From: Lytechinus pictus
Taxonomy: Eukaryota
Reading direction: 5' to 3'
Length of the DNA stretch: 64,000 nucleotides
NCBI RefSeq assembly: GCF_037042905.1
Contig: NC_087250.1
Span: forward strand, 13,828,001-13,892,000
The position numbers and the translations under genes are program-made. The stretch's first letter is position 1; each line of letters begins with the position of its first letter. Below the pieces are notes generated by a model that was given only the letters and a program-made list of their open reading frames with translations, searched no databases and was not told the DNA's origin. Of this stretch, positions 6,114 through 64,000 are shown in pieces.

Positions 6114-6128
6114 TTTATTTCTTGATAG

Positions 6129-33507: not shown

Positions 33508-33977
33508 GTAAATGAAAATTTAAATTACCGGTAGGCCTAGATCTAGATTATATTAAGTCTTAACGTGTCGTTAGGCCTAGATCTAGGCTAATTTTATTTT
33601 GTCACCATCATTATCCATAAACGAAGACTGTTGAAAAGCGATTAACATTAGTTGCGCTTGCCAATTACAATGGCATACCAGATTTCTTTGGCAGAACTTG
33701 CATGCAACGGGCCGGGATGGCGGGTGAATTTTTGGATTGTTAAATGTTTTTTTTAGAAAGATCTATTATTGTTGGAAGTTTGTTTTGTCAGTTCAGTTTT
33801 GAATTGTTTCTGCACTATTTACATTCTGCAGTGGCCAGTGTACATGTAACTGTAAGAAACGTTTAACATACCAGGTACCGTTAGTGTGTTATCATTAAAA
33901 TGGGCCTACCGGTACATGTATATTACAAGACTACACTGCACAGAATGTTGCATTATGGGTTAGGAACATGGTCTGCA

Positions 33978-34122
33978 GGGCCCGTTGCAGAAAGAGTTGC
34001 AATCAATCGCAACTCTAAAAATCTTGCGCAACTTGATTTTCAACCAATCAACAGCGCGCATTTGGGACTTGCGATTGATTTTTTGAATTGCGTTTAAATG
34101 CAACTCTTTCTGCAACAAACCC
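33978..34122. mobile_element. Small MITE; second copy at 40244-40389
   Basis: GGGCCCGTTGCAGAAAGAGTTGC ... GCAACTCTTTCTGCAAC; the two copies are closely similar. Confidence 0.75.
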
Positions 34123-34839
34123 CAGATATGTGGTTGACGACATGAGAAGAGAAGCAATCTTTAATATTGGAAAGAGTAAAATGAGAGGAAAAATTTAAAA
34201 CTGTTTCATCAAAATCTGTTATGAATATGAAATAAGCAAATTTGAAAACTCTTGTTGTAGTTTCTATGGGGATCCTCAAATTGGCAAACATGCTTCAAAA
34301 TGGCTGATTTTGTGGACAACTCTCCATTTGTTTTGTACACAAATTTTCAGATTTTCCTCATCTTTCAAATTGCATCTTGCCTCCTGCTGAGCACATCATT
34401 TGTCATTGGAAAATATGATTCACACCACATATGTCAAGGTCAGGGGAAGAGAATGTGAAATGTGTAAAATAAAGGGGAAAATCTGAAAATTTGTGTACAA
34501 AACAAATGGAGAGCTGTCCGCAATATCAGCCATTTTGAAGCACGTTTGCCAATTTGAAGATCCCCGTAAAAAGTACAACAAATGAACAAGACTTTTTAAA
34601 CGTTCATAACTTGCTTATTTCAATTTTCTTAACCGATTTTGATGAAACTTTTTTTTAATTCTCGCTACCCCAAATAGGAACAAAAATCTCATAATGCGCG
34701 AGACGAGATAATTTTCACTCCGTCGGGTCGTCATCACCACTTCCGGTTCAGAGTCATGCTCGCGCGAGGTTCGCGATACTGAGTTTTCCACCACGCTGAA
34801 ATCGATGCCAATTAGCGTAATATGTACAGATTATAATAC

Positions 34840-35815
34840 TTTTTGTCTCACCTGCATAGCAGAGTGAGACTATAGGCGCCGCTTTTCCGACGGCGACGGC
34901 GGCGGCGGCGGCGGCGGCGACGGCGGCGTCAACACCAAATCTTAACCTGAGGTTAAGTTTTTGAAATGACAGCATAACTTAGAAAGTATATGGACCTAGT
35001 TCATGAAACTTGGCCATAAGGTTAATCAAGTATTACTGAACATCCTGGCTGAGTTTCATGTCACATGACCAAGGTCAAAGGTCATTTAGGGTCAATGAAC
35101 TTAGACCATGTTGGGGGAATCAACATCAAAATCTTAACCTAAGGTTAAGTTTTTGAAATGTCATCATAACTTAGAAAATATATGGACCTAGTTCATGAAA
35201 CTTATACATAAGGTTAATCAAGTATCACTGAACATCCTGCATGAGTTTCACATCACATGACCAAGGTCAAAGGTCATTTAGGGTCAATGAACTTTGGCCG
35301 AATTGGGGGTATCTGTTGAATTACCATCATAACTTTGAAAGTTTATGGATCTGATTCATGAAACTTGGACATAATAGTAATCAAGTACTACTGAACATCC
35401 TGTGCAAGTTTCAGGTCACATGATCAAGGTCAAAGGTCATTTAGGGTCAATGAACTTTGGCCAAATTGGGGTATTTGTTGAATTACAGCCATAAATTTGA
35501 AAGTGTGTTGGTCTAGTTCATAAAACTTGGACATAATAGTAATCAAGTATCACTGAACATCCTGTGCGAGTTTCAGGTCACATGATCAAGGTCAAAGGTC
35601 ATGTAAGGTCAAAGAACTTTGGCCACGTTGGGGGTATTTGTTGAATTGCCATCATATCTCTATAAGTGTATTGGTCTAGTTCATAAAACGTGGAAATAAG
35701 AGTAACCAAGTATCACTGAACATCTTGTGCGAGTTATAGTAGTTTTCAAAATCAGCACTGCTGCTATATTGAATCGCGTGATGCAGGTGAGACGGCCAGA
35801 GGCATTCCACTTGTT
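34840..35815 (+). mobile_element. HINE copy in PLCL intron 1 with expanded (GGC)n
   Basis: Complete termini and about five internal monomers. Confidence 0.85.
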
Positions 35816-37314
35816 ATTAAATTTGGTCAGTTTTGATTCCATTTGAATTATAAATTAAAAAAAATATTTTACGTGAAAATAATTTTTATTCATGTTTTTA
35901 TTTGGTTATAAAAGAAGTAAACAAAAAAATGAATATCTTTAAATTTTGCATTTAGCGACCGGCCTGACATCACGATCGGACTAGACTAGACGCTAAATAT
36001 ATACAGCATTCACTCCGTTCAATTTTTCGTCGACCACAAAATGGATTAAAAAATCAGTTTCGGAACTTTAAAAAATCTTAACTGACAGAGAAATACCGTG
36101 CGATGGAAAGGGTCGGGCAGAATTAGTGACTTTAGCAGAAAAGACCGTTAAACTGTATTGTGAAAGAGAGGGTTGTGATCAAGATTTTTCCGAGCGAAAG
36201 AGACGTTGTGTTGTTGTGCATGACGGCACTGTTGATCTGAATTGCAAAACAGTGCATTGGACATCCGAACAGGAAGTTGTAATACCGAAAAGCTATCCCA
36301 TAATGCAATGCGCGTTACAGGGATTTTCCCGGATCTCGGCGAAATCGCTATTTGGGGTAGCGAGAATTGTTCCTCTCATTTTACTCTTTCCAATAAGATT
36401 GGCTTCTCTTCTTGGGTTTGGTTTCCTTTAAGGCTACTGGATCATTTGTACAGGTGTATGCCCAAAACACTGAAAGTTGATTAATAACAATTACTTTCAG
36501 AAATTTTAAACATGTTTTATAATTATTTTGAAAAAAAGGCAAGACTTCCATATGTCCCCTCCACTGAAATTGAAAAAAAAAATGGAGAAGGTTTGTCAAG
36601 AATTATCTAACATATATCTAAGAGATTTAAGAAGGAAAAGTTGGATACATACCAAAATATGGCTTTATTCCGTCAAAAGTTGTGTGTGTGTGTAATTCCC
36701 TATGGCATCGGTTTATTTAGTCAGAAAAAATAAATGCCCAATACTTTTGGAGAGTAGACTAGTCGTAATATCGACTTACTCAGAGAGTAAGGCGACAGAC
36801 TGGAGATTCATCGTTCTGCAACGAGAGGTTCGAATCCAAGTTCCAACCGGAAGTATTAAAGAAGAAGAAAAAGAGAGGGAAAGAAGGGGGTTTTGGAGAA
36901 GTATTTTTTTATTTAGTGGAGGGGACATAAGGAAGTCTTTCCGAAAAAAAAAAAATCATTTTTTTTGCTGTCCCATGCATAAACTGTCATCAAACTTGAG
37001 ACCAATATTCTTTTGAAAGTCATCATACTATGGATAACACAGCAAAGTCTAAATGCTTGTTAATCATTTCTCAGAGGTTGAAAATCTGTGAATGCCCTAG
37101 GAAGGGCAATATCTTGGACTTGCTTTCTAATACCATTCAAAACCAAGGTTCCCCTGTACTGAGAAAAGACATTCCTCTACATTAGGCAGGAAAATACCTG
37201 TGTTTTATGATCAGTATACAGAAAATTTTTTAGTGGATCACACCGCAGTCATCCTCTTGAACCACATTATTTATTTAGTAGAGTATTGATGAGTAATTTA
37301 TGATGTAACCACAC

Positions 37315-38152
37315 CAGGTAACAATCAATTTTAAATGTTGAAGAGGAGGGGGGGGGGGGGGATGACCAATACTGTTTGTAGTCTTTCATTGACTGTGTGT
37401 TATAAATAGCTAGTCTTATTCAAGCAGCCATCTCCATGCCTACCCAAATCTGACCAGGGCCCCGTCTTACAAAGAGTTACAATTGATCCAATCAATCGTA
37501 ACCCATGGAAATCCATCAGTGTCATAATTTTGTATAAAGGAAATTTGCAAAATGTCCTTTGTAAACAAAGGAGAACACACCAAATTGTCAAGTAATCAAT
37601 GAATTTATGGATATACATTCATATGTAGAAAATTATTTGAGCAAACATGTATTTCATATGTTGACTTTGCTGGCTTTCCATAGTTGCAATTGATCGGATC
37701 AATCGTAACTCTTTGTAAGACAGGGCCCAGGTAACAGACAATTTAAAATGTTGAAGAGGAGGGGGGGGGGGGGGATGACCAATACTGTTTACAAGTAGTC
37801 TTTCATTGACTGTGTGTTATAAATACATGTAGCTAGTCTTATTCAAGCAGCCATCTTTAAGTCCATGACTACCCAAATCAGACCAGGGCCCCGTCTTACA
37901 TAGAGTTACGATTAATCCAATCAATCGTAACTCTATGGAAATCCATCAGTGTCATAATTTTTTCTATAGAAAATTTGCACAATATTCTTTGTAAACAAGG
38001 AGAAACAGTGAATTTTCAAGAAAACAATGAATGCATGAATAGTTAGAAAATATTTTGAACAACCATGAATAATACATGTTGACGTTGTTGCCCGTCCATA
38101 GTTGCGATTGATCGGATCAATCGTAACTCTTTGTATTAAAGACGGGGCCCGT
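37315..38152. repeat. Local tandem duplication (~415 bp), each unit ending in a GGGCCC-terminated MITE
   Basis: CCAGGTAACA...GATGACCAATACTGTTT...GACCAG-GGCCCCGTCTTAC present twice. Confidence 0.85.
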
Positions 38153-40642
38153 GTTGCTAAACCCATACATCCTGAGCAGTGTATTTAGGTCCAAATTCAC
38201 TGTTCAATACATTTATACCACAATGTTACCAAGTACATATATACAAGTACTTTTCCTCTCAATACAATTAAGTTTCTCTATAAAATTGTAGGATAATTTA
38301 TCATGTAATTTGTATTGATATATTGTACATGTATAATGTACACTGTATTTCAAGACTACACTGTAGCTATTCATAGCACACAGTGAATGAGAGGCAACAG
38401 ACAGTTCCATCGGTCCCTAAAACAGAGAATTAGCCTATAACTTTATTCGTACAAATGCTGTTTAAGATATGAGTACTTGTTAAACTCACTGTGCAACTGG
38501 ATTACACTCAACAGTGTTGTGTCATCCTTTCTGGGATCATTTACCAAAAAGGCTGTTTTAGCATTGTTATAACGAAATTAAAATTTCATTCAGTATTGAA
38601 AATTATTCGTACAAACTACAAAATGTCAAAAGTATTTTCATTTTCTTGATTTCTATATTATTACTATGATTTGGTTATTTGTTTTACAGTTTGCATCTAG
38701 TTAAATAGCACCGACAATATAATATAATATCATTATAATTATTATTTTTTTTTTTTTTATTTTTTTTTTTTTGGGGGGGTGATGTTACAATGTATGTAAA
38801 TCAAATCATCAAATTTCATATTTGTTTTGTTTTGTTTAATTTACGATTTTGTTAATTGTTATGAAAAGAAATGTTCTTTTACAATGTATTTCTTTGATTA
38901 TTTTTTTTTTAATGTTAATTTTTCTTTGATTGTAATCATTTATGTTTGGATTTGAAAATCAATAGAATATTTATTTTACAACTTACAAGATTTGAATAAT
39001 TAAAAAATTATAGTGTAAATTCATTGTACAAAATGCAAAAAAACATAGAATGGCAAGGCATACATGTAGCATATAAAATATCAATAAACATTGATTAAAA
39101 AAAATGAGGCAGTAAGAGAAATTAGGCATAGCTTGCCAGCTGTATTTGCTTTGAGATTGTGTGTACAATGTAGCATTTTTTTCTTGACATAGCAATTTAC
39201 ATGTAGTCCATAACAGCAGAACAAAAACATTTTCCCTCTTTTATCGTATGGAAGCAGCTTAGAAAATACATTATATGGGGACAGCAGACGGTTTGCCCCC
39301 AAATCACCCCTATGATTCCCAAAATGGCTTGCTTTGGGGGTCCATCTTGTTTTAGAGTCACCCCAAGATATGCCAAAAAACAATATTAAAGAACAAAGTT
39401 TAGAAAATCATTGATATTACAGGTATATGGCAGTAACCAGTAATGATTATATTTTTATTAACCCCATACTGTAATGTAATTAACCGTCTATAAGTTTGAG
39501 CATGAACTCACAATTGTTTTTTATCGGCTAATGATCTAAAAAAAATAAATGAGCTCCTTTTTTAAATGATTTTATATTCCCTTTACCACTTAAACATTAC
39601 ATTTTGATTTTCTTATTTCAGGCCTACATTTCGGTAATAAATTTTTGATTTATTACACAATTTCCTTGATTGATATACTGATCTACTTTCTATTGCTGTA
39701 TAATTTATTTCTACATTGCTGTATTATTGTTGGTCTTCCTTGATCTGTGTATAATGTGAAAACAGGGCATGTACATCCCTGTAAATATTTTGCTTGATCT
39801 ATTAGCTGCAATGATGCTGTGATATACATTTACTGTACATGTACATGTAGCTGCCAAATATTCCTATATTTGGAGCATTCCAATGTACAGCTATGGGAAA
39901 AGAAGATTATTATTCTATCCTGTTCCTATATTTTGTGAAAATGATATTTTGTACTTTTGTATTGAATAGGAAATTCAAAAATGATCCTATTTCATGGATT
40001 TTTGTAGTATTTAGTTCCCATTACTTGGCTGTTAGGGTTGGCAGTATATACATGTATATGCTGTTACATACAATAAACAGATGCATGTTTTCCATGCGTT
40101 GTTAGTAAACCTATATTGCTGTCATTAATTTCAATATTCCACATGTACTAAGAATCTTGCTATACAGTAGGATTGATCAGAAGTAAAGTCACATGATAAA
40201 GGGTAGTTTCCCCCATCAAACATCACTCGCATTGATGGATCTGGGGCCCGTTGCAGAAAAAGTTGCAATCAAACGCAACTCTAAAAATCATGTGCAACTT
40301 GATTTTCATCCAATCAACAGCGCGCATTTGGGACTTGCGATTGATTTTTTGACTTTCGTTTAAACGCAACTCTTTCTGCAACGGACCCCTGTTGTATTTT
40401 GCTGATCTTTTCAGCTTGTAACACATTGTGAATTAGTTTGAGTATGATCAAAATTATTAAAAGAGGTCATTGCCCCTCAATGTTTGTCCATCACCTCACC
40501 AACAGTGATTACTTGCTTTATCCCGTTTTCCTTCATCTATTGGCAATTTAATTCATTGATACACATTTGTTTTTATATTCCCGGTAATGAATTAATAGTC
40601 AGAAAACTGAGCACTTGCATGTATAAACATCTGTTTTATTAA

Positions 40643-41581: not shown

Positions 41582-41679
41582 TTAAATGCTTTATAGATCT
41601 ATATTATTAGTTAATATTCATATTTATAATTATTATATTTCCCACATTTAATTCATGTTTGTACATTTGTATCTTACAG

Positions 41680-41829
41680 CATCTGATTGTCTGTCAATAA
41701 TGGAAGCTGGAAGTGAATTAGTGAAAGTAAGATCTCCCTCGAGACAATACAATCGTTTCTTTGCTCTAAGTGAAGACAGGTCCGAGCTTCGATGGCATTC
41801 ATCTTCAAAGAAACCAGAAAAAGCAAGAA
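41680..41829 (+). CDS. PLCL2: PLCL exon 2 (PH domain N-half)
   Basis: TTACAG| ASDCLSIMEAGSELVKVRSPSRQYNRFFALSEDRSELRWHSSSKKPEKAR |GTAAGT; phase 1-1; PLC PH-domain signature. Confidence 0.92.
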
Positions 41830-42164
41830 GTAAGTCATGTCTTCTGTATTAAAAACATACGGTTTTGATGAGACTCCATTATTTTTCAAAAGGTCCCCAC
41901 CATCAAAAAATGGCAGCTTTCGAATTTGTAATGTTTTCGTGTATTTATTTATTTATTTATTTCTTTATGTATTTATTTACTTATTTATTCATTCATTTAT
42001 TTATTTGTTTGTTTGTTTATTAATTAATTAATTAATTAATTAATTTATTTATTTTATTAATTATTTATTTATTTTTTTTTTTTTTTGGGGGGGGGACCAA
42101 AACAGTTTTTATTAAAAATAAACTACTCTCCCCAAGTCTAATTATAATTACTAATATTAAAATT

Positions 42165-42421: not shown

Positions 42422-42545
42422 TCATATTATCAGTATTATCATTTTGATTTTCATTATTATTACGATTATTTTCATATTTATTATCATCATCACTATTAAA
42501 ATCAAATTAATCTAATGAATTTATTTTATTCTGTCTTCATTTCAG

Positions 42546-42752
42546 TTTCTGTTGAGAGTATAAAGGAAGTACGACTGGGGAAGACGACCGAGATGTTCAG
42601 GTCTCAAAACATGGCCATGGATTTCCCTGAAGATTGCGCGTTTTCTGTGATATTTGGTGAATCTTACGAGACTCTGGATCTGGTAGCTGCCACACCAGAC
42701 GAAGCCAATATATGGGTGACTGGTTTGTCTTATCTTATAGGAGGAAACACAA
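42546..42752 (+). CDS. PLCL2: PLCL exon 3 (PH domain C-half)
   Basis: TTTCAG| ISVESIKEVRLGKTTEMFRS...EDCAFSVIFGESYETLDLVAATPDEANIWVTGLSYLI |GTAAGT; phase 1-1. Confidence 0.93.
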
Positions 42753-43094
42753 GTAAGTATCTGCTATTGAGTCACTATCATAAAATGGTGATTTGGATCC
42801 TTATCAAATGATATATGCTGAACCAGCCATTTATTTTAGCTACATGTATAAACAGTATACAAATAGGGAATAGGCATGAGTTTGATGGTACAAGGTTGAA
42901 TAGAGTGTCTCTTTCTTTCACCGAATGCGAAAGGTTGCACCATTGCACAATAAGAATACATTCGCTATATGTTTTGTACAATGTCTTGGAAAATCAAACA
43001 ATAGTTGATTTTTTTTTCCAAGTTTTGTCTATGAAAATGAGAAAAAATTATTCAAAGCAAAATGCAAAATCCCACATATATGTACGCGCATCTG

Positions 43095-44022
43095 GGGCCC
43101 GTCTTACAAAGAGTTGCAATTGATCCGATCAATCGCAACTATGGACGGCCAGGAACATCAACATCTATTAAGCAATGTTTGTTCAAAAAATTACTATGAT
43201 TTCTATTCATGCATTCATTGTTTTCTTGAAAACTCACTGTGCCTCTCTGTGTTTACCAAGGACATTGTGCAAATTTCCTGTAGAAAAAATTATGACACTG
43301 ATGGATTTCCATAGAGTTAAGATTGATTGGATCAATCGTAACTCTTTGTAAAGGCGACCGCACACCTTACGACTGGTCTGCGACCCGATTTTGGAACAAA
43401 TCGCATTTTGCTCATTTTTTGAAGATGTGAATGGAACATATCATTTTATTTGAGGTTAAGATTAATTGAAATAATAATATTATAACCATTTTGAAAGATT
43501 GCAAGCCCTTATTTTGGAGTAAAGTCCAAATTAGTTTCAAATCGTAGCCAATCGTACGACTGCTATGACGTCATTACGACTAGATATCAAATTTGCTTTT
43601 ATTCTAAGAAGGATGATAGCATAGTCACAAATTTGATCATAGGTATTCGTACGATGATTTAGAACATTACACAGTAAGATATTCCAAGTCTTAATATTAG
43701 CATCAAATACTACTACATTTTATTCTGAAATCGGGTCGCAGACCAGTCGTAAGGTGTGCGGTCGCCTTAAGATGGGGCCCAGGGGCCCGTCTTACAAAGA
43801 GTTGCGATTGATCCGATCAATAGCAACTATGGACGGCCAGCAAAGTAAATGCATGCTTGTTAAAAAAAAATTCTAGATATGAATGTATATCCATAAATCA
43901 ATTGATTTCTTGACAATTTGTTGTGTTCTCCTTTGTTTACAAAGGACATTTTTCAAATTTTATTTAGAAAAAATTATGACATTGATGGATTTCCATAGAG
44001 TAACTCTTTGTAAGATGGGGCC
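43095..44022. mobile_element. Two stacked CWG-target Harbinger-like MITEs; the first contains a TAA-TSD MITE (43352-43767)
   Basis: CTG|GGGCCCGTCTTACAAAGAG...|CAG|GGGCCCGTCTTAC...|CAG; inner TIR AGGCGACCGCACACCTTACGACTGGTCTGCGACCCGATT. Confidence 0.8.
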
Positions 44023-44606
44023 CAGATCTGCAACAATTTTAATACCAAGCATGGTTTAGTATACATTATGACGTCAGGACGGTGCAACGGTACAATCTTT
44101 ATGGTACATGTACCTGTGCAACGGTGTGAATGTCTGATGCTCAGCCTCTCATTGGCTTGTGTATGTTCAACAAGCTTGGTACAGGCATTTATAAAAAAAA
44201 TTTACCAATGACTGACCTGTAATTATTGACCAGTCATTGGGTTTGAGGTTAGGGCGGGGTGTCAAATAACACTGATCCACTGATACACATAATTTTTCTT
44301 TGGCAATAATTTTTACTCTTTACCTTTGAAAATGTCCAAACGTTTGGTGGTGTTAAAAGTGTGCCAAAAGTACCTTGTGCATGTAATTCTCACTAATGAT
44401 TTACACTATTGTTAATTGATCAGTTGTGTGTTCTTTCCAAACCTATTTTGAAATACATGTAGAATCCTTACATTGTGATTTGGAAGCACTGCTGGTAGCT
44501 AGTTGTCCAAGTTCTTAATACTGACTTTCCATATTTCCAACTGATTGAAATTAAGTATTGCATTTTTAAATAAATTTCCTCCTTATTTCACTTTCATTCA
44601 TTTCAG

Positions 44607-45243: not shown

Positions 45244-46442
45244 CAGGTGTGTTTTTGAAGCGCCCCCTGCCCTAGTCTGGTGTGTGAACCCTTCGCTCCA
45301 GTTAGGAGTCTGAATGTGCAGCCTACTCATGCCTTGTGTACTGATGGCTCTCTCGCTCAATTGAAACAGCAATTTTCAAATGTGCTAGTCTTTGTGTGGA
45401 AACCCACTTGTTGATCAAATTTTTAATCAGGGTCTGTGCCTGCCCCACCTTATAGGACACTCGCTCATTGCTGGCAATGGTGTTGACACCAACACCATCA
45501 CTATTTATAGCAACACCGTGCTGCTATAAACTATTATTTATTACTTTATAGCAGCACAGTGTTGCTATAAAGTATTAAATAGTGATGGTGTTGGGTGTTT
45601 GTGGTGGTGTTTCTGTTAATAGAGAGGGCTATCATTGGTGTTTCTGTTAATAGTGTTAATAGTGATGGTGTTGGTGTCAGTGTTTGTGTTTAAAAGACAT
45701 GATCACAGTTTGACAGCCGAATGACCAAGTTTGGCATTAATAATGATTGTGATTATTTTCTTGCATGATTGACATCTATGTGTTTGATGATGCACCCTTG
45801 ATGAGAAGGTCAATTAATCTCACATGTTGGGAAATATGTTTTTTAAGCCCTCTGTACCCCATATTTTGCTGCCTAATTGGATTATTAATATGGTGATAAT
45901 GTTGTTGTGAATAATGATAATCATGCCTTTAATTTGGTATCTCACATTGATCCCCACCTTTCATTACATGTACACATGAATGTACATACATGTAGATTAT
46001 CATTATGACATACCATGCCTGGCAACTGTCAATGTTTAAATAGGGACAGTCCCAAATTTTTGTAGAAAGAGAGAGAGAGAGTCACTTAAACCACAGTGTA
46101 CGTGTCCTGGTGAAAAATCTGTAGACCTGAACTATATCAATAGGAACCCCCGGCAAAAGTCCTGATTTTCAGCCATTGTCTTCCCGTATGCCCCATTTTC
46201 TCAAGTTTCAGGGTTGGCAGGTACATGTATGTTATGGTGATAATGATATTGATTTCCTTTATGATTTCATTATTTAATCATGGTTGATGTTAGATAAATC
46301 AGTGGGTAATGTATGGTGATGAAGATGATGATTCTTTAATCAATTACATGTACATGTATCTCACTTGGTTGGAATGTATATGCATGTTTAATACAGGTAC
46401 AGGTGATCATGGTCATGATGTTGATTTCCTTGACTCGATTAA

Positions 46443-46951
46443 AGGGGAAGTTCACCCTGACAAAAACTTTGTAAAAATAACAGAAAAAATAATGAAAAAT
46501 ATTGGTAAAGGTTTGAGGAAAATGCATAAATGATGAAAGAGAGATATTAGAATTTCAAGTTTTTTATTTGTGATGTCATAAACAACCAGAGCTCTGCCCC
46601 ATATGTTACATGTACAGTACGTAATATAAAATGCATAAATTTCATTTTTTTAATGGTTCGTAATGACTTATTTTTTATTTTCTTTTAAGGAGCGGGTGGG
46701 AAATTATTTTTCTATTGATATACTGAATGTACAATTCAAACCATTTTCAATTTTCAGAGAAAATGGCATTTCATTGATTTTTTACCATTCGATATGTAAG
46801 CTGCTCGCATATGACGTCACAAATTGAATAATTAAAATGTTAATAACTTTTTTATTCTTTGATGGATTTTCCTCAAACCTCGCCAATATTTTTAAATTAT
46901 TTTTTCTGCTATTTTTGAAATAAACTTTCTCAGTCAGGGTGAACTTCCTCT
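46443..46951. mobile_element. Kolobok-like TTAA MITE
   Basis: TTAA|AGGGGAAGTTCACCCTGAC ... GTCAGGGTGAACTTCCTCT|TTAA. Confidence 0.85.
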
Positions 46952-47186
46952 TTAAACTCACATGGTTGAGAAATGTTTAATAATGCACCCTTGATGAGAT
47001 GATGATAATGATGATGATATTAATTTCCTTGACTTTAGTTACCAATCTCACATGGTTGAGATATGTTTAATAATGCACCCTTGATAAGATGATGATGATA
47101 GTGATGTTGATATTGGTGGTGGTGGTGATGATGTTATTGTTGTTGATGATGATGGTATTAGTTTACTTGACTTTTTTAATAGTTAA

Positions 47187-47757
47187 AGTGATCATTTCAC
47201 TTTGTTCTGATTTAAAAAATTCTCCTTTTGGTTCCTGAAAATGGGCTAAACATTAGGCTTATAGTGTAAAAATACCATCCCAAAAGTTTCAAAGTATTAT
47301 ATTTACAGGATCAATTTAAAAACCTAGGAGATGTAAACCAAAGTTTGAAATAATTGGGAGTTGGTTTCAATGACTATATGTATACAGGGATTCTGTGCAC
47401 CACAACACATTAATTCTAGATGAAAACAGCATTACCTACATACAGTGTGTACAAGGTATACACTGAATATACAGTGCAGCTAATAGTGTGTGTATAGGAG
47501 ATACACACAACAGAATGCAGTCAAAATAGCCAACGGACTTTTTGAATTGGAGAAAACTGGTCATAAGCTGAACCCGTCTACTAGACGGTTCTCAAAATCA
47601 GGCTAATAAATTGCTACTTGTATCTAAATTAGAGTTTTTCATCCTATATTGTGGTCTGTTTCAGGGTTTTTGAGGACAAATACAGGCACTCATACGCACG
47701 TTTCAACTCAGTTTGAGAAATTTTTAAATCAGCTGCTCACAAAGTTAAACGATCCCT
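47187..47757. mobile_element. Kolobok-like TTAA MITE (different family; relatives at ~18600-19150 and 61221-61601)
   Basis: TTAA|AGTGATCATTTCACTTTG ... CAAAGTTAAACGATCCCT|TTAA. Confidence 0.8.
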
Positions 47758-48019
47758 TTAAATCTCACATGGTTGGGAGATATGTTTAACAAAGCAGCTG
47801 GTGATTTGATGATATTGATATGAATGTGATGATGATGATAATGTTGGTGATATTGATTTCTTTGACTTCAGGAGTTAAATCTCACATGGTTGAGAGATAC
47901 ATGTATGTTCAACAAAGCAGCGGGTGATTTGATGATATTGATATGAATGTGATGATGATTATGTTGATGATGATGATAATGATGATTATATTAATTTCCT
48001 TGACTCAATTAAATCTCAC

Positions 48020-48149
48020 ATGGTTGAGAGATATGTTTAACAAAGCAGCTGGTGATTCATTAGGTCAGTTGGATGAATGTGAAGTTATGCAGCTCATGAA
48101 GAAACTTAACAATGGTGTCGCCTCAACTCGGATTAGACACAAGTTTAGG
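48020..48149 (+). CDS. PLCL2: PLCL exon 5 (first EF-hand-like region); no further exon recognised in the window
   Basis: WLRDMFNKAAGDSLGQLDECEVMQLMKKLNNGVASTRIRHKFR |GTAAGT; matches the PLC EF-hand start (W...F...). Confidence 0.88.
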
Positions 48150-49469
48150 GTAAGTCCTTATCTTATCAATGATATAATATTGCCAAGTAGTACTGATTTT
48201 CAGTTATCAGTACTGAAATTGAAACAAAATATTGCTTGTTTCATTAAAAATAATGATTTCTGAAGTTTTTTAATTCATGTGTTTTGTGGTATTTATTTGA
48301 AAATACTGATTTCCTCACCAAAATACTGATATTCAGCTTTTGAAATACTGAAATGTTCTTGTGCAGTTTGGCATCTCTGCAATATCCCCTATTCACAGTT
48401 GTTACTGCACATGAGCAGTAAAAGGTCATTCAAGGTAAACAAAATGGTCTTCAAATTCACTGATGCATCCATGATTGGATGATTATTCATGTAGGCCTAT
48501 ACTATGCTTTTCACACTGTAGTACAGAACGTTCATGAGGTAAAGCTTAGCCCACTTTGGTTTCACACTAGGTTTTTAAAGTGGACTAGCAATATATTGGT
48601 ACGGTACTATCTGTCTTGCCCTGCTAAAAAGCAGGGTTAGCCGGCTTATTGCGGTGCTAAGAACCGCAGTGTGAAACCAAACCGGGCTTAGGAAAAGTGG
48701 GGCTAAGCATTAGCCAATTACAGAAGTGGAAATTGCATGTTAATCATGCTCTGTGTTGCAAAATCATCAATATTCATGAGCTGTGCGACAGTCAGGGGTT
48801 AAGTGCTCGGATGTGTGATACAGGTATATTTTTAGCCCGGAGCATCCCTTTATTAAAAAGTGATCATACAGATATCATACAATGTCCCTGCACTGATACG
48901 GTATGCTCTATCATGGGATCAAATTGAATTCCAGTCTAGTGTAGAAAGCCTGGTAAAATAGAACTTATACATGTAGTTTTGGGGGCCATGAGGCCGTTCT
49001 CATTATGCTTTCTAAAACTAGTTTACTGGAATCCGATTCAAAAAACCAATTTGGAAGATCGCTTTGCTAGCGTTCCCACTTGATCATACGAAAGTGGTTT
49101 TCAAAATCATTTCACGATCTTGTTGCTTGTTGCTAACTCCCAATGCACCGCATGTACCATGTACAGATATACTTGAAATATCAGTGGTTAGTGAAATCTT
49201 GTGTCATACAGTCAGACCAGTATTCAACGTTAGTACCAGTATATTTCAGCATGGGTTTGCATTGGAAATTTTATACCTCTTGAAATTAAAGGGAAACATA
49301 TCCCCAAGCTCAATCTCGTAATTGGTCTAGGCTTTATAACAGATTCCAGGTCAAGGTCTCTGTCTATATCTTGGGCACATTTCAATATGCACAAATGATG
49401 AACAAATAAAAAGGGACATCTTTAATACGTACATTCAAGATGCGGATGGAAAATATGCAGGGGCGTGGG

Positions 49470-49598: not shown

Positions 49599-50728
49599 CA
49601 CACAACATTGACTGAAGTGATTTCATCCCATAGATTTGAACAAAACAACAGACTCGCAGTAGTAGATGAGAATTTGACATACATAGGATTTTAAATTCAA
49701 TGTACATGTACATTGTATGCAGCAGGCTTCACTACTCAGCATCCCACAATGTACTTTGAAGTCCCCATTTCATGTAGGCCCATAATATGTAGGAATGGGC
49801 AATTAAAAGCCAGTATAATGTACCTGCTCATATATTTTGCATACTATGCCAATTATTTCTATCGCAGAATTTACATGTATGTTTCAGGGGCAAATAAAAG
49901 TATGATTTCATTTGTTTTTAGGGAAGCGGCTTTTATTCAATGAACATAATTGGACACAGGTACATGTACGGCTTTTATACAGATTGGCCCAAAATTTAGT
50001 TTGTGCCACACAAATAGCGGATTAGGGTCCTGGGGTCAGAAAATTGCAATTTTGGGGTATTTTCAATTTGTAAGCTGTTCTGTTGATTTTGTGTGATTGT
50101 TTACATTTTCAATAGGGTCACGGCAAGGTAGAATATGTATTAGGACGACAGGCGATTTTGCCCTCATGAATGCCAAAATCACCCCTAAAATTAAAAAGAA
50201 AGAATGTTTTTGGGGACCATCTTTTCTAGGAGGAATTAATCATTGTATCACTTGACAATGAGGAGAAAATAAGAATATTTCATGTTTCATATAATAAAAT
50301 ACAAGAGAAATAGTGAGTGGATGACGTCATCAGCTTCCTCATTTGCATACCGATCAGGATGTGCATACATGTATATAACTGTTTTGTGAAATTAAGCGAA
50401 ATTTTAAAATGTCATAACTTTTTTATTTTACATCTGATTTCGACGAAATTTTCAGTGTTATGCTTGTTGGATTTTTCTCTTTTTTATTCAAATCAACTTT
50501 CTGTTGAGGTGGACTTGTCCTTTAAGGTAGATTCCATATTTCTATATATTTGAGGAAACTCTCCAAACGGGTTGAATACTAGTGCCCTTACGGTATTTTT
50601 ATTAAACTGTCTTGAACTTGAATATGAAGCAAACAACTGTACTATGTACGGGGAAAATGCTATCCACAATGTTTGTGTATTGGTAAATTGAATGGAGTTC
50701 AACCTTGCCTTTAATCATGAATGTAATA

Positions 50729-50924: not shown

Positions 50925-53900
50925 AGACCCTACTAGGATCCACGCATTAATATCCTAGCCTGAAGGTATAAGACCTATTGAAACCAATTAATTCAATGTC
51001 CTTTATCTCCTGGCCGCCAATTTATTCCCAATGAGATGCTATTGGTTGGAGGTCTTAACAAGTCGTACGCGATACATGTATGTCTCGTGTTCAGGAAATT
51101 CAAAGCTTAACAGTTGTAGGCTGTAGCAAATGATGATTTGATGAAAAAGTCTTTAAAATTGTCACCGATTCAAAAGTCATCATGTCGAAGTTCAATTAAT
51201 TTTGTTGTCTTTCCATTTTTAATGCACAACATGTACATGTACATGTACACCTGTTATCAAATTGGTCTTTTGGAATGTACAAGACATTTTTATGCCATGT
51301 AATATTAGTCCATTGATTCTTGCCATTACAAGTTTGTTTGTTGGAACTTTGAAGAGCTTATTATTTTTAATAAGCTGTTATTTTTAAACTTTATCCATAT
51401 CTACATGCATATTTGTTGTCATTAAGCAAAATTTGTTGTTACTCAAAATTTGTATTTCTTCCATGCCCCTGAAGGGACCGTTCTAGAAATAAAATCACTC
51501 TACTGTACCATATATAGATCTAGATCCTGTAAATTTGTTTACTGTCTACAAGTATAACCTAACTATGTGAAATCATAAAATCTATTATCTGGAAAACAAA
51601 CTTTGAAATCATATGACATCTATGAAAGCTTAAAAAAAAGATCACATTGAAGATCGCCAACACATGTTCTTCTTGTCCTTGTCCTTTCAATAGAAACAAT
51701 ATACACTGTATGTCTAATTCACATCCACAATAATACGCTGTACATGTACGTGTACCTTTGAATTCATCCATTGCATCTCTTCCTTTTCTTCGTGATCTTC
51801 CAACGTGTGGTATTAGAATAGGGATGATCGTAATTTTGTTTTTTTAAAAAGCCCGACATGTACAAGTACATACAAAGCAAAACATGTTTGAGTGTACAGG
51901 TACATGTCTAGCGGTACTCATTATATTTGCAAGATGGAGAATGAAGATGAAAACATAGCTTTTGATGTAGTTTTCCTTCAAATGGCATGTCCCTGACCTT
52001 TTAGAATGGTGTGTGTGTGATAGATGTATGTCAGAATACCTAGGTTTATAATGTAAGAAACCTTCAGATGATCAGTAGATTGCAATGGATGAGGAGCCCT
52101 TGGCAAACTATGTTTGGTTGCAGTTCTGCAGGTACATTATGGACAACACAGAATGATAATGAATTAAAGATGTAGCTGTCAAAGTTGTAGTACATTGTAC
52201 ATAGTATGCCTTCATCGTGTCTGTTCATCAGTTAAAGGTTGTAAGGAACTCTCGTACGAAGCCCCGGAGCAGAACAAGTTTGTGTGCAGATTCTCTCTCT
52301 CAGAATGTTTTACAGAGTGATTATATGATATGTACAGTACAGGACATTGATCTTGATGTTAGTTCCTTTTACAGGTATAGAATGTCCTTGAATAGAGAGT
52401 GTAACACAGCACTGGCGGATCCAGGGGGGGGGGGGGGGAGCTGGCCCATGCCCCCCTTTGAGAGGCACAATTAAAATTTGCAATGTAAATATGCAGTTAG
52501 AGCAGAAATGTGCCCCCTTATTTTTTTCTTTTTTTTTTGCTTGTCAATTTTTTTTCGTGAACGGAATGTCCTCATTTTGGGTTGAAAACTTTTGTTTTTT
52601 GCTTGTTAATTTTTCCTTGGGGAAAATGTGCCCCCCCCCCTTTTTGGAAAATCCTGGATCCGCCCCCGGTACATGTAAACAAAAATTGAATGAATGTTTG
52701 ACAAGAGAGAACGTTCTAAGGAATACATTGTTTATGTACATGTACAGTATGTATTTCCACAAAATAATAAATGTTATCGAAGAGAAGCCCTTTTTTATAA
52801 AGACATGTTTGGTTGCAGGTAGTGTATTATTATTATTATTCATTTGGCCATTAAAAAACATACAAAAATTGTACAATGTAATTACAAAAACACTATTTGA
52901 TATTAAATAATTAAATATGGATATGTAAAAATGAAAGAAAAGAAGAAAAGAGTAAGAAAATTGTTTTTCCATGGGCCAGGGCTCGCAAAAGTAAAATTCA
53001 GTACTATCGCCCAGAGGCATGCGATGCGAGCCCCCATGGAAAAATCATTGAGAGTATTGCACATTCCGGTATATAAGATTACACATTAAAATTCAAATAA
53101 AACACATTCAACAGTTATTATTAAGAAGTATAAGAAATATGGAAAAAACATTGAAATTTTTGCACATTCCGGTATATAAAATTACACATTAAAATTCAAA
53201 TAAAACACATTCAACAGTTATTATTATTAAAGAAGTATGTAACGCCAGGCAAGATAAAAGAAATAAAGAGGGGTATTGGGAAGAATTTGAATACCCATGC
53301 CGGGTGTACATGTAAAGAAGGCACAGAAGAATAGTTTGACCATGGACCCTGGTATGATGTACAATACGCAGCTCTCAATAATTTTGTCTATTTGTTTTAT
53401 CATGTCCTTGGCATGCAAGAATTGTATGAGGGTCTGATCGTATGTTTGTCATAGTGGCTGGCTTCTGGGAATACATCCTTCAAAATAGTATTGTAATTTG
53501 AAAAAAAAAGGAGCCCTTATAAAAACATGTCGGGGTGCTGGTACTCGTAACACACAGAATAGTGAGGAGTGAGAAAGCACATTTCGGCATGTTTATAATG
53601 TACTGTACTGGAGTAAAACCAATGAACTTCATAGAATACCAGGCTTACATACTGTACATGTATGTACTATTACATGTACATGTACATGATATATACTTTC
53701 ATTTTATATTCATTTTGTATTGTAATAATTATGTATGCATATTCAATTTGTACATGTACTGTATATACCTACTGTATAGATTAGTCTGCTGTGCAAACCA
53801 TTCACTTGAGCTATTAAGGGTCTGAATGCAAAGCCTATAATGACTCATGTGCTGAAGGCCTATAAAGGGACGCACCATTAGAATACCCAGGGGGGGGGGG

Positions 53901-54161: not shown

Positions 54162-54911
54162 CAGGGTTGGGCTCAATTACAAGGTAATTGATCAATTACG
54201 TAATTAATTACATTTTTTTTGTAATTGTAATTGTATTTGAAATTTTGAAAGGGAAAGTAATTGTAATTGTAATTGAATAATATAATTGACTTCAATTCCT
54301 GTCAATTACTTTTGATTACATTTAATCATTAAATTTACTATAAACTTATTTTAATATTAGATATAATTGAATGACCTTTTTCATGTCAACTGCGTCAGCA
54401 TCAAAGAGTGTAATAGGCAGAATCCCTGCTCTTTATAAACTCGTATCTTGTCAGTTTCTCTGTATTAAACTTAAATTTATGTTGAAATAGTTGGTGCTTG
54501 TACTTGTACAGAATACAAAGCGATTTGATAAATGACTGTTATAGAAAGTATTTTAAATTGTCATTGACAAAAGTAATTGGTAATTGTATTGTCAATTGTA
54601 ATTGAAAAAATGTAATTTGATTGATAAGTAATTGCAATTGAACATGAATTTCTTCAATTACATAATTGTACTAAATAGGTTCATTATTGCGGATTGAAAT
54701 AATCGCTAGAGGGTATTCATTTGTCTCGCAATCTACTATGGTCAACAAGGAAATTCGTGATCACTCTCTCAAAAAGTGTTCACTGGCTTTCTAGGAAATT
54801 CGTGATCACTCTCGCAAAAAGTGTTCACTAGCTTACAAGTTCACGAGCTTTCGAGTGCCGCTCTAGCGATTACATAATTGTAATTGAAGAAAGTAATTGA
54901 GCCCAACCCTG
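54162..54911. mobile_element. hAT-like MITE (GTAATT-rich)
   Basis: TIR CAGGGTTGGGCTC / GAGCCCAACCCTG; same family as 59617-60081. Confidence 0.8.
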
Positions 54912-57518: not shown

Positions 57519-58077
57519 TGCTGTGCAACTACTTTCTTTTTGATACCTGAAATGTGTTTTATTTGATTGGCTGCCTGATAAAATACAAAACACCTTCTCA
57601 AGTATGGATTGGGCTAAAAACTTCAGGATTAACTATTGATGCTCAAACAGGAGTTTAAAATGAAATGAAAAATGTTACCAAGAAAGGGTTCTTTATTTAA
57701 ATTGAAATACATGTACTAAGGGCTGGACAATTTTAAAATTCTAGGTAAAAAAATGCATTCAATGACTTCTACGCTTTTGTATTGTCCGTTGATACTTAAG
57801 TATATTAGTTCACACTACTGATCGTTTACCAAAGTTTTAGACAGGCTTTTGATATTTTGATTAAAGTATGAAGGAGAGAGCACATAATATGAGCAGTGCT
57901 TGTATGCTCACACAATGCTCTCTATGGTCCCTATGCAACAAAAAGTGCAGGAAATAAAGGTCAATACATGTACATGCTATGCATGCTACTCTACATGTAC
58001 AGTATGCTGATCACATTGCAAATAGTCTATTGAGGTTCTGTTCAAGCCAGACCCCATGCTTCATTGAAACATATATT

Positions 58078-58532: not shown

Positions 58533-58873
58533 TTGGGTACTACATGTAAGTTTGAAGATTAATGTGCCTTTTCTTGTACTTTATAGTTTATACATTTACC
58601 TAGTGTTTTTGCTGTTTTCCATTAAACACCTTGAGCAAAATCAAAAATGGAAAAGATGCTATATAAATCCTACATTTTATTATTATTATTATTATCATTA
58701 TTATTATATTATTATGTGCATTATTTATACACAAGTGGTGCCATATTCACTGTAACCATCCAAATAAAAAAAAATTGGGGGGCTACTTTTCACAACTTAC
58801 TGTTGTTTCAGGGAATAAGTTTCCTGGTATCACATTGCAATTTGCTCCACATTTTTTAAAGACTGCTACACAA

Positions 58874-59616: not shown

Positions 59617-60081
59617 CAGGGTTGGGCTCTATTGCAAGGTACATGTAATTGATCAATTACGTAATTACATTTTTTGAGTAATTGTAATTGAATTTTTTTT
59701 TATTGACTTCAAAATACTGTCAATTTTACACTGTACAATAAACTTTAATACTGATATGATTGAATTTCATGACCTTTTACATGTCAACTGCTGCAGCATC
59801 AAAGAGTGCAATAGGCAGAACCGTGCTCTTTAACATGAACCTTTATCTTGTTAGTTTCTCTGTAACTTAGAATTACATGTATGTTGAAATAGGTGGTACT
59901 AACGTTTTTAATACCGTAGCACATTAATAAAGAATACAAATTGATTTCATTTATGACTTTTATAGAAAGTAATTGAAATTTTAATTGCAATTTACAAAAG
60001 TAATTGGTAATTGTAATTGAAAAATATGTAATTTAATTGAAAAGTAATTGTAATTGAAGAAAGTAATTGAGCCCAACCCTG
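59617..60081. mobile_element. hAT-like MITE
   Basis: Same TIRs; 8-bp TSD TTGCCTGA/TTGCCTCA. Confidence 0.85.
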
Positions 60082-60140
60082 TTGCCTCATTGTAAATAAT
60101 TACCCAGCATGGCTACCCAGATTCGGTGCTTGAGCATTCC

Positions 60141-61220: not shown

Positions 61221-61601
61221 AGGTATTGTTTAACTCTGTGAGCAGCCGATTTAAAAAATTCTCAAACCAAGATGAAACATGTGTACAAGTGCATGTATTA
61301 GAACTAATAAACCCTGAAAACAACCATTATTGAGAATGAAAAGCTAAAACTACAAGGCAAACCCCGATTTTGTAAATAGGCGTCTTATAGACGCCTAAAT
61401 AGTACACATAAGTGTATGGGATGAAATTAAGATGGTGTTTTCGGTCACTTTATATTTCAATTTTTGAAGCACTAAATAATTATTTACGAACGCAATTTTT
61501 TCTGGGCTTCATTTTTGTAACATATCACACACACAGGTGACAAGTGTGACCTTCTAGCTCAGATTTTTAAAAGTCAAATCAATGTTTAATAACCAATCAC
61601 T
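61221..61601. mobile_element. Kolobok-like TTAA MITE
   Basis: TTAA|AGGTATTGTTTAACTCTGTGAGCAGC ... AACCAATCACT|TTAA. Confidence 0.7.
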
Positions 61602-61854
61602 TTAAAATGAGGAAGTTATAATCATGTTGATAAAAGTGAAAGTGCATATATGAAAGTGCATAAAAGTGAAAGTGAATATGAGCTCCCACAGAAGTTGTTT
61701 TAAAACATTTTTCTGCCTGAATTGTGATTGTCAGAACTGCTTTAAACATTCCCTTCTGATTTGTTAAACCATGTAACGATGTCACACGGCACCCGACATG
61801 TATGTGTCGTACGAATTTTCTGTGCGCGTGAAATCGCCCCGCGCTTGACTGCTT

Positions 61855-62400
61855 ACTGAATGAGTCATTGCCTCATGAAAGAAATATTGATTTTTACTAT
61901 AACAAATTTGCTCTGAGCCAATCAGATGCGAGGATTTCCGTAGCTTACAACAATAGTCAGTGAGAACACAACTGCTGAATGAATCATTGCCTCATTATGT
62001 ACTTCAGGTTTATTAGTGTTAAAGAAAACAAATATTGATTTTCACTAACAGATTTGCTCTGAGCCAATCGGATGCGAGGATTTCCGTAGCTTATAACAAA
62101 TAGTCAGTGAAAACAACTGCTGAATGAATCACTGCCTCATTATGTACTTCAGGTTTAGTGTGTTATGAATTAAATAGTGATTTTCACTAACAAATTTGCT
62201 CTGAGCCAATCAGATGCGAGGATTTCCGTAGCTTACAACAATAGTCAGTGAGAACACAACTGCTGAATGAATCATTGCCTCATTATGTACTTCAGGTTTA
62301 AGTGTTTTAAGAAAACAAATTTTGATTTTCACTAACAGATTTGCTCTGAGCCAATCAGATGCGAGGATTTCAGTAGCTTATAACAACAGTGAAAATCACT
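61855..62400. repeat. ~145-bp tandem repeat, ~4 copies
   Basis: TTTGCTCTGAGCCAATC(A/G)GATGCGAGGATTT near 61907, 62053, 62195, 62340. Confidence 0.9.
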
Positions 62401-64000
62401 GACCATTGCTTCATGAAAGCTCCTGTGCTGCTCTTGAAATCAGTATGAACACAGCCATACTGGTTGGGAAGTACGTAATGATAGTAGGAGAAGCAATAAA
62501 TTTCTATGCCAACTTTGATTAGAGCTCATGTGTATATATTGACTTTATGCTCCAGTCATCAAATCCACCATCTCGTTTGCTGTGCGAAACCCTTCACTCA
62601 TGGAAAGTGGTCTGAATATTCTATATGCAGCCTTATAAGTATTATGTATGTGTCAATGACTTGTTAACACCACAGGTGGTAGAAGGTAGTCTGCAGGCAT
62701 AGACCTTTGTGTTTCGCAATTCACGTAGTGCATGATGCAGAGTCTGAATTAGTGAGACTACATGTAGATTTACTGTGGCTGCTCTTATTGGCTCTGGACA
62801 GCGACAATTGTTCCTGCTTTATTTCATCTGAAGTATAGGGTTAGGATTACGGTTGAAATAAGGTTTATATCAGGTTTAGGACAGGGTATAGTGTTAAAAT
62901 CCAGGGTTGAAGTTGGTCATTCCAGTGTGTTGGATTTACTGCGGAGCAATTGTTATGGAACCAGTCTTGAGTCTAGTCTTCACTCCAGGCATGGTATAAT
63001 TGGTCAGAGTGTCAAATATGAGTATGTGTTTTCAGACCAGGTTGAAGCCTTGAAGGTCCCTCCTGAAATTGTAACATCAAGTAGTATTCGTGCTTCATGT
63101 AGTTCTGTGTCAAGCTCAAGACCCACTTGTTGATCAAAATTTGAATTTCAATCAAGGTCTGTGCCTGTAGACTACATGCAGATTGGCGATGTCTCTGTCA
63201 CATTAGTCTGCAGGCACAGACCCTGCTTGAAACTTTGATCAGCAAGTGTGTCTCCACGCAAAAACTAGCACTATACAAAACTTGTGCGAGAGGGCCTTCA
63301 GTACACAAGGCATGAGTAGGCTGCACAGTCAGAATAAGCCAGTTAGAAGTTCCACTCTACGCATGATCAGAAGATTCTGCGCATGATCAGAGGAAGGTCA
63401 TTTGTACTAAAGTGACATGGTGGTTTTAATTCTAATGAGATAAGCACCAACTTTGATGTCTTGATTATTTATATATTCTTTTGAATTGTGGTTTTCATTT
63501 ACATCCACAAAAAACAACAATGCGTCCACGAACAGAACGGCTGGTATCACAGTTTGCCAAGTACATTGTACAACATCATCTAATATGCATTCAAAGTAGA
63601 AATGCAACAAATACCTTCATAGAGTGTTCATTGATGTGCTGTTCTAGTCACCTGGTCTATTCAATTTCTTCATCCTGCCATGTAAGGCAAGCTTACGTAA
63701 TATCTTGCTTTGAAATCTGCCTATCATAATGAAAGAAATGAAAGGTCATTTGACCAAAATTGTCCATGAAGTAACTACGACCTGGGGAGTGTTTCATCAA
63801 CATTTTTGTCCGACAATCTGTCAGATCTGACAACTTTCCTTGATTTTGATTGGCTGAGAAGCACTGTTGCTAGAGTAACTGTCGGATAAAACAGGACTTG
63901 TCGGACAAATCACTTTCATGAAACGCTCCCCTGGTCTATTGGCTCTGAACAGCGACAATCGTTCCTGCTTTATTTCATCTGAATTATAGGGTTACGATTA

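Follow-up and report, generated by a model that had tools for sequence, protein, structure and literature searches.

A 64,000-bp stretch of the Lytechinus pictus genome (contig NC_087250.1, positions 13,828,001 to 13,892,000 of the forward strand; "the window" hereafter denotes this whole stretch) contains 49 copies of the octamer TACATGTA, most of them in the introns of a predicted PLCL2-like gene. The octamer is enriched far above chance, and comparisons of paralogous copies support an origin by insertion of 6 bp at a TA dinucleotide, without a template in the flanking DNA. We propose that the octamers were left as scars when Tc1/mariner-type elements excised, in a host whose repair retains both 2-nucleotide (nt) overhangs, a reading to which we assign a probability of roughly 60%.

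Abundance and origin of the octamer

Dinucleotide shuffling of the window (100 shuffles) gave an expectation of 1.86 octamers, with a largest value of 6, compared to the 49 copies observed. The original prediction, an inspection of the sequence by eye, had counted about 40 octamers in the PLCL introns and about 3 between 10 and 33 kb, and had put the chance rate at about 1 per 30 kb. The computed numbers are 42 in the stretch 33840-63200 (termed the gene body below) and 3 in the 10-33 kb interval (at 21144, 21432 and 23309), with 4 more at 1-5 kb, and the shuffles confirm that the enrichment is real. The tandem form TACATGTACATGTA is likewise present at each of the four positions named beforehand (39836, 46345, 51234 and 53671). 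Merging overlapping tandem forms reduces the 49 octamers to 45 loci, 38 of which (42 octamers) lie in the gene body and 7 upstream. Against an order-2 background TACATGTA is the top 8-mer besides homopolymers and trinucleotide repeats, and on both strands together (98 vs 9.1 expected) it is the sole strongly enriched word of the type TA-NNNN-TA, local-repeat words aside. Contigs from independent public runs, which may however come from the source individual, cover the octamers at 49703, 49872, 49961, 51073, 51234/51240 and 51741 with zero differences, which makes an artefact of the assembly unlikely.

For seven loci, a paralog that can be aligned exists within the window. A plain TA in one copy faces TA plus CATGTA in the other at 37824 (vs 37407), 47898 (vs 48032, 47781 and 47062) and 59640 (vs 54185), and in these three clean indels the inserted CATGTA and the flank share only TA. 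At 47898, a local repeat stemming from a PLCL2 exon exists in five copies, only one of which contains CATGTA; the four sisters lack it, among them the in-frame coding copy (...WLRDMFN...), whose GAT ATG corresponds to GATA-CATGTA-TG in the intronic copy. Since the coding and sister copies lack the insert, the event is an insertion, as had been proposed for this pair. Of the five pairs originally cited as clean 6-bp indels, however, two turned out otherwise. The copies at 59874 and 54472 are of equal length and differ by two substitutions (TACATGTA vs TAAATTTA) at about 80% identity, as would be expected if both had carried the motif and one had lost it by decay, and the alignment of 62759 with 50801 requires either a 6-bp gap and a nearby 7-bp gap, or several substitutions. 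The motif at 23309 and 50366 is common to both sites through one repeat. Paralog alignments outside satellites total about 10 kb and contain six 6-bp indels, a small sample, of which three are CATGTA. Of the origins that the prediction itself had named as refuting, substitution does not describe the clean pairs, which are 6-bp indels at TA, and slippage describes neither these pairs nor the 37 of 45 loci with 11 bp or less of period-6 identity.

Within 46952-48099, in the intron upstream of the real exon, a segment of a PLCL2 coding exon (...NLTWLRDMFNKA...) recurs in four or five partial copies with a GAT-rich microsatellite between them. These copies are pseudo-exon duplications adjoining the real exon.

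Proposed excision of Tc1/mariner-type elements and rival explanations

An excision scar of this form would come about as follows. Insertion of an element at a TA, with duplication of that TA, yields TA-CA...TG-TA, a configuration that is demonstrated in the window for one Tc1 element. The stagger of the Tc1 and Tc3 cuts is 2 nt. A transposase cleaving the non-transferred strand two bases within either end of the element would leave ...TACA and TGTA... with 2-nt 3' overhangs, and end joining that fills in and joins both overhangs would produce TA-CA-TG-TA, a net gain of the 6 bp CATGTA. The word would be uniform because nearly all families of the superfamily start with CA and end with TG. The TAs of a scar might then be used again, through new insertions or slippage, giving rise to tandem and mixed chains, for which the Tc1 end at 1383 provides a live example. 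Passages of PMC6943129 describe Tc1/mariner transposases as cutting the non-transferred strand a few nt inside the element; what remains between the TAs is the initial or terminal 2-4 nt, and the spectrum of scars varies with the host. As a variant, the same word may be left, through perfectly annealing overhangs, by a family absent from the window that ends in CATG (4-nt stagger) or CAT (3-nt stagger); no CATG-ended element is among the window's candidates with terminal inverted repeats (TIRs). The premise that Tc1 can leave TACATGTA is no more than chemically possible; the usual scars are +4 (Tc1 in C. elegans) and +5 (Sleeping Beauty).

Junction words counted over the window form a spectrum around the exact join of TACA and TGTA (49 vs 2.9 expected). 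Joins with one additional A or T (TACA[A/T]TGTA) number 11 vs 1.6 (P=1e-6), those with an additional C or G (TACA[C/G]TGTA) 4 vs 0.95, and those shorter by one base (TACAGTA/TACTGTA) 19 vs 11. The one-sided +4 words TACATA/TATGTA are in small excess (98 vs 77), and TACGTA is not in excess. This spectrum supports an end-joining-like process. Scar units also occur in chains, 12 of which lie outside the zinc-finger array of the window and 10 of these in the gene body. The octamer is followed by CAGTA, sharing its TA with TACAGTA, in 5 cases vs 0.13 expected, which ranks first of 64 three-base inserts (P=2.6e-7), and a sixth octamer-adjacent +5 locus carries CTGTA.

The CA and TG found between scar TAs equal the termini of the window's two Tc1 finds, both located outside the gene body. 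The element at 15864-17528 ends in TA-CACTG...CAGTG-TA, possesses perfect 27-nt TIRs (TA included) and contains an open frame without a start codon (16196-17164) that matches DDE_3 and HTH_Tnp_Tc3_2. A plasmid collection, of little relevance to such elements, gave no match to it. The host sequence of this young element is a tandem array of local repeat units of about 130-140 bp (15540-18060). The unoccupied site, GAAAG-TA-TATGG, is preserved in four sister units; hence, TA duplication by such elements is demonstrated in the window. The other find, a Tc1 end at 1383, starts with CAG and occupies the second TA of the octamer at 1375. The earlier statement that CA..TG elements of the TA-duplicating Tc1 type occur in the window is borne out by the element at 15864, although none was found within the gene body.

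Other candidate donors were rejected. In the family of MITEs (miniature inverted-repeat transposable elements) marked by 'CAAAGAGTTACGATTGATCC' (37468-37717, 37897-38135 and 43105-43350) TIR complementarity runs past the TA, as it does in the element at 34336-34497, which is the centre of a long inverted repeat. A 551-bp joint from 43311 to 43863 (ends TA..TA) is a long-TIR MITE nested in a repeat and probably a cross-match from another copy. As to these structures themselves, the near-perfect long inverted repeat spans 34276-34557, with arms of at least 80 bp and a 162-bp centre. A high-copy MITE with long TIRs starting ...CC[A/T]GGGCCCYGTCTTACAAAGAGTTACGATTGATCC and TGA/TAA-like trinucleotide flanks is found at 37440-38160 and 43080-43860, and a second MITE (TIR AAGGCGACCGCACACCTTACGACTGGTCTGCGACCCGATTT) is nested in a MITE copy at 43350-43780. 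The region of the 'CAAAGAGTTACGATTGATCC' / GGGCCCYGTCTTACAAAGAGTTACGATTGATCC-TIR MITEs has an enormous word depth in public runs; this intronic family is presumably PIF/Harbinger-like.

The insertion-excision cycling that had been envisaged is favoured by the untemplated insertion at TA, the junction spectrum and the Tc1 in the window, but several results weigh against it. A strict scan for TA-CA...TG-TA elements, with TIRs ending at the TA, finds only the Tc1 at 15864 and none in the gene body, and the chained self-alignments within the window contain no pair of a filled and a scarred site. No allele with an element at a scar position was seen either, although the public-run contigs, compared over 20 kb, were dominated by high-copy repeats. 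The gene-body density of 1.58 loci per 100 TA implies a very high excision flux. C. elegans Tc1 also leaves terminal CA/TG dinucleotides between two TAs, the target and its duplication, yet its usual scar as given in excerpts of PMC12632400 is the one-sided +4 form TATGTA or TACATA (78% cited, 8 of 11 or 73% observed), whereas here the two-sided +6 form dominates and +4 words are in small excess only. Isolated TACAGTA/TACTGTA amount to about 13 vs 11 expected once the six octamer-adjacent copies are removed; the +5 forms are thus frequent only beside octamers, which is unlike independent events with one repair spectrum. Finally, adjacent second events number 10 (four tandem units and six +5 units) vs 0.5-1.1 for random TAs (P=2.6e-7 at expectation 1.1), and re-use of scar TAs, slippage or single complex events must be invoked. 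With chain-type flanks removed, the residual flank bias is weak (uncorrected P about 0.02-0.03, at two positions), and this re-use is thus not explained by target preference alone. Gaps of less than 100 bp between neighbours are not significantly in excess (about 7 vs about 4.5 expected, hand count).

The same observations can be accommodated by a different kind of recurrent, sequence-specific insertion, in which a domesticated or unseen nuclease or transposase acting at TA, or aborted insertions, would deposit CATG together with a TA duplication. A constant word at TA with no donor in the gene body, a uniformity that is extreme next to the Tc1 (+4) and Sleeping Beauty (+5) scars, and the re-use of scar TAs far above chance would all agree with such an activity. 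We nevertheless regard it as unlikely, since the inserted letters match the CA/TG termini that are universal in Tc1/mariner elements, a type found in the window, the junction variants resemble those of ordinary end joining, and a literature search gave neither a candidate enzyme nor a precedent. Slippage or tandem duplication of 6-mers (TGTACA, GTACAT, TACATG) in TGTA/TACA-rich, cryptically simple DNA, with the octamer as a hexanucleotide microsatellite seed, is in our view a good deal less probable still. Taking at least 12 bp of period-6 identity as the criterion for a 6-mer tandem duplication, 8 of 45 loci qualify, vs an expectation of about 1.9 for CATGTA placed at TAs chosen at random; the four tandem forms, the word TGTACATGTACA (14 vs 0.1 on both strands) and TGTACA (132 vs 69) point in the same direction. 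The other 37 loci show 11 bp or less and are therefore not 6-mer duplications, which refutes this origin for 82% of loci; nor does it explain the CAGTA neighbours, the +1 junction variants or clean indels that have only TA in common with their flank. Slippage or re-use adds a minority of tandem forms and is not the origin of the octamer.

It is also conceivable that TACATGTA is a selected functional palindrome, that is, a protein-binding site or an intronic RNA element of the host gene. The concentration in the gene body and the larger excess of intact than of decayed copies (46 vs 22) might be taken that way, but we consider this very improbable: the motif originates by a 6-bp insertion rather than by point changes, occurs in a pseudo-exon copy and in tandem and compound forms, lacks a shared context in its flanks and is above chance outside the gene as well (7 loci in 18.8 kb unmasked), and the motif literature found concerns oomycete promoters only. 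That the octamer is an internal or terminal motif of a dispersed repeat, and its counts are merely repeat copies, seems hardly credible. The sites at 23309 and 50366 are indeed copies of one repeat, and those at 52737 and 53662, 926 bp apart and each beside a TA, have the inverted 15-nt word CATGTACAGTATGTA in common. However, the former is the one repeat-shared pair among 45 loci, and the 90 outward flanks are heterogeneous and mutually unrelated and reveal no family upon sorting; no repeat family thus serves as carrier of the motif. Moreover, between 38.9 and 58.9 kb a tally of the depth table places 17 octamers in 5.3 kb of low-depth unique bins and 18 in 14.7 kb of repeat-rich bins, and CATGTACAGTATGTA consists solely of scar units (TA-CATG-TA-CAG-TA-TG-TA), with the match ending after 15 nt. 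On the same grounds 52737 and 53662 are taken as coincident chains, although they may instead be the TIRs of a CATG-ended element. Two long open reading frames (ORFs) without Pfam match, 52392-52910 (+) and 52547-53044 (-), are found between these sites.

Distribution, age and known systems

Scar density was determined after masking satellites, the coding zinc-finger array, the LINE, the young Tc1, a GAT-rich tract and three exons. The unmasked gene body contains 35 loci at 2,222 TA (1.58 per 100) and the upstream DNA 7 loci at 1,590 TA (0.44 per 100), a 3.6-fold excess per TA (binomial P=8e-4) that refers to one locus and is confounded with age and repeat content. The contrast between gene body and upstream DNA is real, but a bias toward transcribed chromatin, as originally put forward, is not established. 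The unmasked upstream DNA (18.8 kb, 0.37 loci per kb) is itself well above the chance value of 1.86 per 64 kb. None of the 45 loci falls in the approximately 15 kb made up of satellites, the coding zinc-finger array, the LINE, the young Tc1 and exons, as expected for neutral scars accumulating in older free DNA. The claim that the process has rewritten the introns is overstated, given that 42 octamers of 6 bp each amount to about 0.9% of 29.4 kb.

Derivatives of the octamer with one substitution number 78, where 55.7 are expected; they are thus about 22 in excess, and intact copies about 46. Under steady neutral decay these excesses would be similar, and most scars therefore seem to be younger than a few percent divergence. 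At least the scars at 42841 and 53307 appear to be older than the split from a diverged relative, organism A, whose contigs over these sites have 5 and 1 deleted letters, respectively, too few for a missing 6-bp unit. Over 51133-51782, a stretch with one tandem and one single scar, contigs of runs X8 and X9 match the window exactly, whereas a contig of run X10 shows 5 substitutions, 14 deleted and 3 inserted letters and resembles a second haplotype. For the short unique stretches 51133-51782 and 51405-51835, deleted and inserted letters relative to the window number 14 and 3 in an organism B contig and 17 and 5 in an organism A contig.

Among known systems, the scar of Minos is a 6-bp insertion comprising the four terminal nt of one end plus TA. 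The octamer, too, is a net +6 at TA, and Minos belongs to the Tc1 family, but words that would match such a one-end scar for the ends present in the window are not enriched (counted with their complements, TACAAATA 7 vs 8.5, TACACTTA 3 vs 3.0 and TACAGTTA 2 vs 2.9). The canonical Sleeping Beauty footprints TACAGTA/TACTGTA (+5), according to passages of PMC6943129, also consist of terminal nt flanked by TA and arise from end-joined 3' overhangs; these are 3-nt based, however, and in the window the same words are fused to the octamer and frequent only beside it. In the Triticeae, the abstract of PMC1925063 reports excision footprints of Stowaway MITEs inferred phylogenetically at one plant locus and for one family. 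There, too, TA-target excision is deduced from comparative sequence, but the abstract mentions no uniform word enriched across a region. Seeds of hexanucleotide microsatellites share with the octamer the tandem TACATGTACATGTA and the excess of period-6 tracts at 8 of 45 loci, and differ from it in that the other 37 are single non-duplicative insertions. Searches of the main texts of open-access papers yielded no report in which the octamer is a transposon scar or an enriched word of animal genomes; mentions of CATGTA in PMC2289394 and PMC3271037 are incidental. The +6 form, its uniformity and its density appear to be new among known cases.

A broader proposal, which we consider possible though doubtful, is that in this echinoderm lineage the change from TA to TACATGTA constitutes a major class of germline mutation genome-wide. 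It would be the uniform scar of every CA...TG element, produced by faithful joining of both 2-nt overhangs, and would form a countable record of excision that is densest in germline-transcribed gene bodies and self-reinforcing through preferred scar TAs. From the 1.58 loci per 100 TA and the intact-to-decayed ratio, a very rough estimate puts the per-TA scar rate at a sizeable fraction of the per-base substitution rate. Genomes normally show no trace of DNA-transposon excision, because only insertions are counted. If the octamers are scars, their uniformity would permit the historical cut-and-paste flux to be measured and the sites where elements land and leave to be mapped, including any preference for transcribed or open chromatin, and the share of small-indel variation that stems from transposon traffic would become measurable in a highly polymorphic marine animal. 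The repair of Tc1-type breaks would then be host-dependent, with +6 in this species, +4 in the worm and +5 for Sleeping Beauty in vertebrate cells, which bears on the end joining of non-complementary 3' overhangs. Should the scars come from another process, that process would itself be new and of interest.

Feature coordinates, host gene and surroundings

Table 1. Octamers, related scars, empty sites, Tc1 finds and coding stretches in the window.
Feature	Position	Strand	Basis or remark
TACATGTA octamer, upstream region	897..904	.	word count
TACATGTA octamer	1340..1347	.	word count
TACATGTA octamer; second TA is target TA of Tc1 end	1375..1382	.	
Solo terminus, fish-type Tc1 (CAGTTGAGGTCAGAAGTTTACA), abuts octamer	1383..1404	+	1 match vs 0 expected
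TACATGTA octamer	3543..3550	.	chain TACATACATGTA starts 3539
Empty TA of Tc1 insertion, sister tandem unit	15726..15727	.	others 17667, 17801, 17922
Tc1-family element, 1,665 bp	15864..17528	-	TIRs, domain matches
TACATGTA octamer	21144..21151	.	word count
TACATGTA octamer	21432..21439	.	word count
TACATGTA octamer, inherited with repeat copy at 50366, not independent	23309..23316	.	paralog alignment
TACATGTA octamer	33841..33848	.	word count
TACATGTA octamer	33913..33920	.	word count
Empty TA, paralog of 37824	37407..37408	.	paralog alignment
TACATGTA, clean 6-bp insertion vs 37407	37824..37831	.	paralog alignment
TACATGTA octamer	38326..38333	.	word count
TACATGTA octamer	39061..39068	.	word count
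TACATGTA octamer	39198..39205	.	word count
Compound scar TA-CTG-TA-CATG-TA-CATG-TA (tandem form and a +5 unit)	39831..39849	.	
TACATGTA octamer	40049..40056	.	word count
PLCL2 PH-domain coding stretch	41667..41843	+	aligned-contig bounds, approximate
PLCL2 PH-domain exon, AG/GT bounds	42546..42752	+	profile match, contig, protein matches
TACATGTA octamer	42841..42848	.	organism A contig leaves no room for 6-bp gap
TACATGTA octamer	44105..44112	.	word count
TACATGTA octamer	44454..44461	.	word count
TACATGTA octamer	45965..45972	.	word count
Chain TACATACATGTA, octamer at 45987	45983..45994	.	
TACATGTA octamer	46222..46229	.	word count
Tandem TACATGTACATGTA	46345..46358	.	
Compound scar TACATGTA+CAGTA	46607..46619	.	
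Empty TA, sister copy of pseudo-exon repeat	47062..47063	.	paralog alignment
Empty TA, sister copy of pseudo-exon repeat	47781..47782	.	paralog alignment
TACATGTA in intronic pseudo-exon copy, insertion (1/5 copies)	47898..47905	.	paralog alignment
PLCL2 coding stretch ...NLTWLRDMFNKAAG...	47998..48169	+	aligned-contig bounds, approximate
Empty TA within coding copy (GAT ATG = D-M)	48032..48033	.	paralog alignment
TACATGTA octamer	48968..48975	.	word count
TACATGTA octamer, then +7 form TACATTGTA at 49709	49703..49710	.	
TACATGTA octamer	49872..49879	.	word count
TACATGTA octamer	49961..49968	.	word count
TACATGTA octamer, common to repeat copy at 23309	50366..50373	.	paralog alignment
TACATGTA octamer	51073..51080	.	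word count
Tandem form, 21-bp period-6 tract	51234..51247	.	
TACATGTA octamer	51741..51748	.	word count
TACATGTA octamer	52670..52677	.	word count
Compound scar TA-TG-TA-CATG-TA-CAG-TA-TG-TA	52733..52753	.	
TACATGTA octamer	53307..53314	.	organism A contig leaves no room for 6-bp gap
Compound scar TA-CA-TA-CTG-TA-CATG-TA-TG-TA	53646..53666	.	
Tandem form, 18-bp period-6 tract	53671..53684	.	
Compound scar TACATGTA+CTGTA	53751..53763	.	
Empty TA, paralog of 59640	54185..54186	.	paralog alignment
TAAATTTA, equal-length partner of octamer at 59874	54472..54479	.	paralog alignment
TACATGTA octamer	57708..57715	.	word count
TACATGTA octamer, 12-bp period-6 tract	57965..57972	.	
Compound scar TACATGTA+CAGTA	57992..58004	.	
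TACATGTA octamer	58541..58548	.	word count
TACATGTA, clean 6-bp indel vs 54185	59640..59647	.	paralog alignment
TACATGTA, partner two substitutions away, not indel	59874..59881	.	paralog alignment
TACATGTA, complex difference vs partner at 50801	62759..62766	.	paralog alignment

PH_12 matches were obtained at 41652-41849 and 42500-42808, and the top protein matches are echinoderm proteins annotated as 'inactive phospholipase C-like protein 2', with 76% identity to a sea urchin protein. By these matches the host gene is PLCL2-like.

A 1,227-codon open frame at 6032-9715 (+) encodes a C2H2 zinc-finger array with 32 zf-C2H2 stretches, built of periodic repeats of about 84 bp and about 456 bp. At 26076-30490 (+) lies an octamer-free LINE-type retroelement, in several frames, that comprises a PHD finger, an endonuclease (Exo_endo_phos_2) and a reverse transcriptase (RVT_1). 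One satellite family forms five blocks (5060-6120, 11870-13470, 25500-26100, 30950-31350 and 34830-35820), with units of about 170-190 bp and 70-95% identity. Runs of G or C are very frequent in the window (GGGGGGGG/CCCCCCCC, 73 vs 0.84 expected on both strands), and the strongly enriched 10-mers TGTATGGATA (34 vs 0.29) and ATCAATGTGG (30 vs 0.32) probably stem from repeat units.

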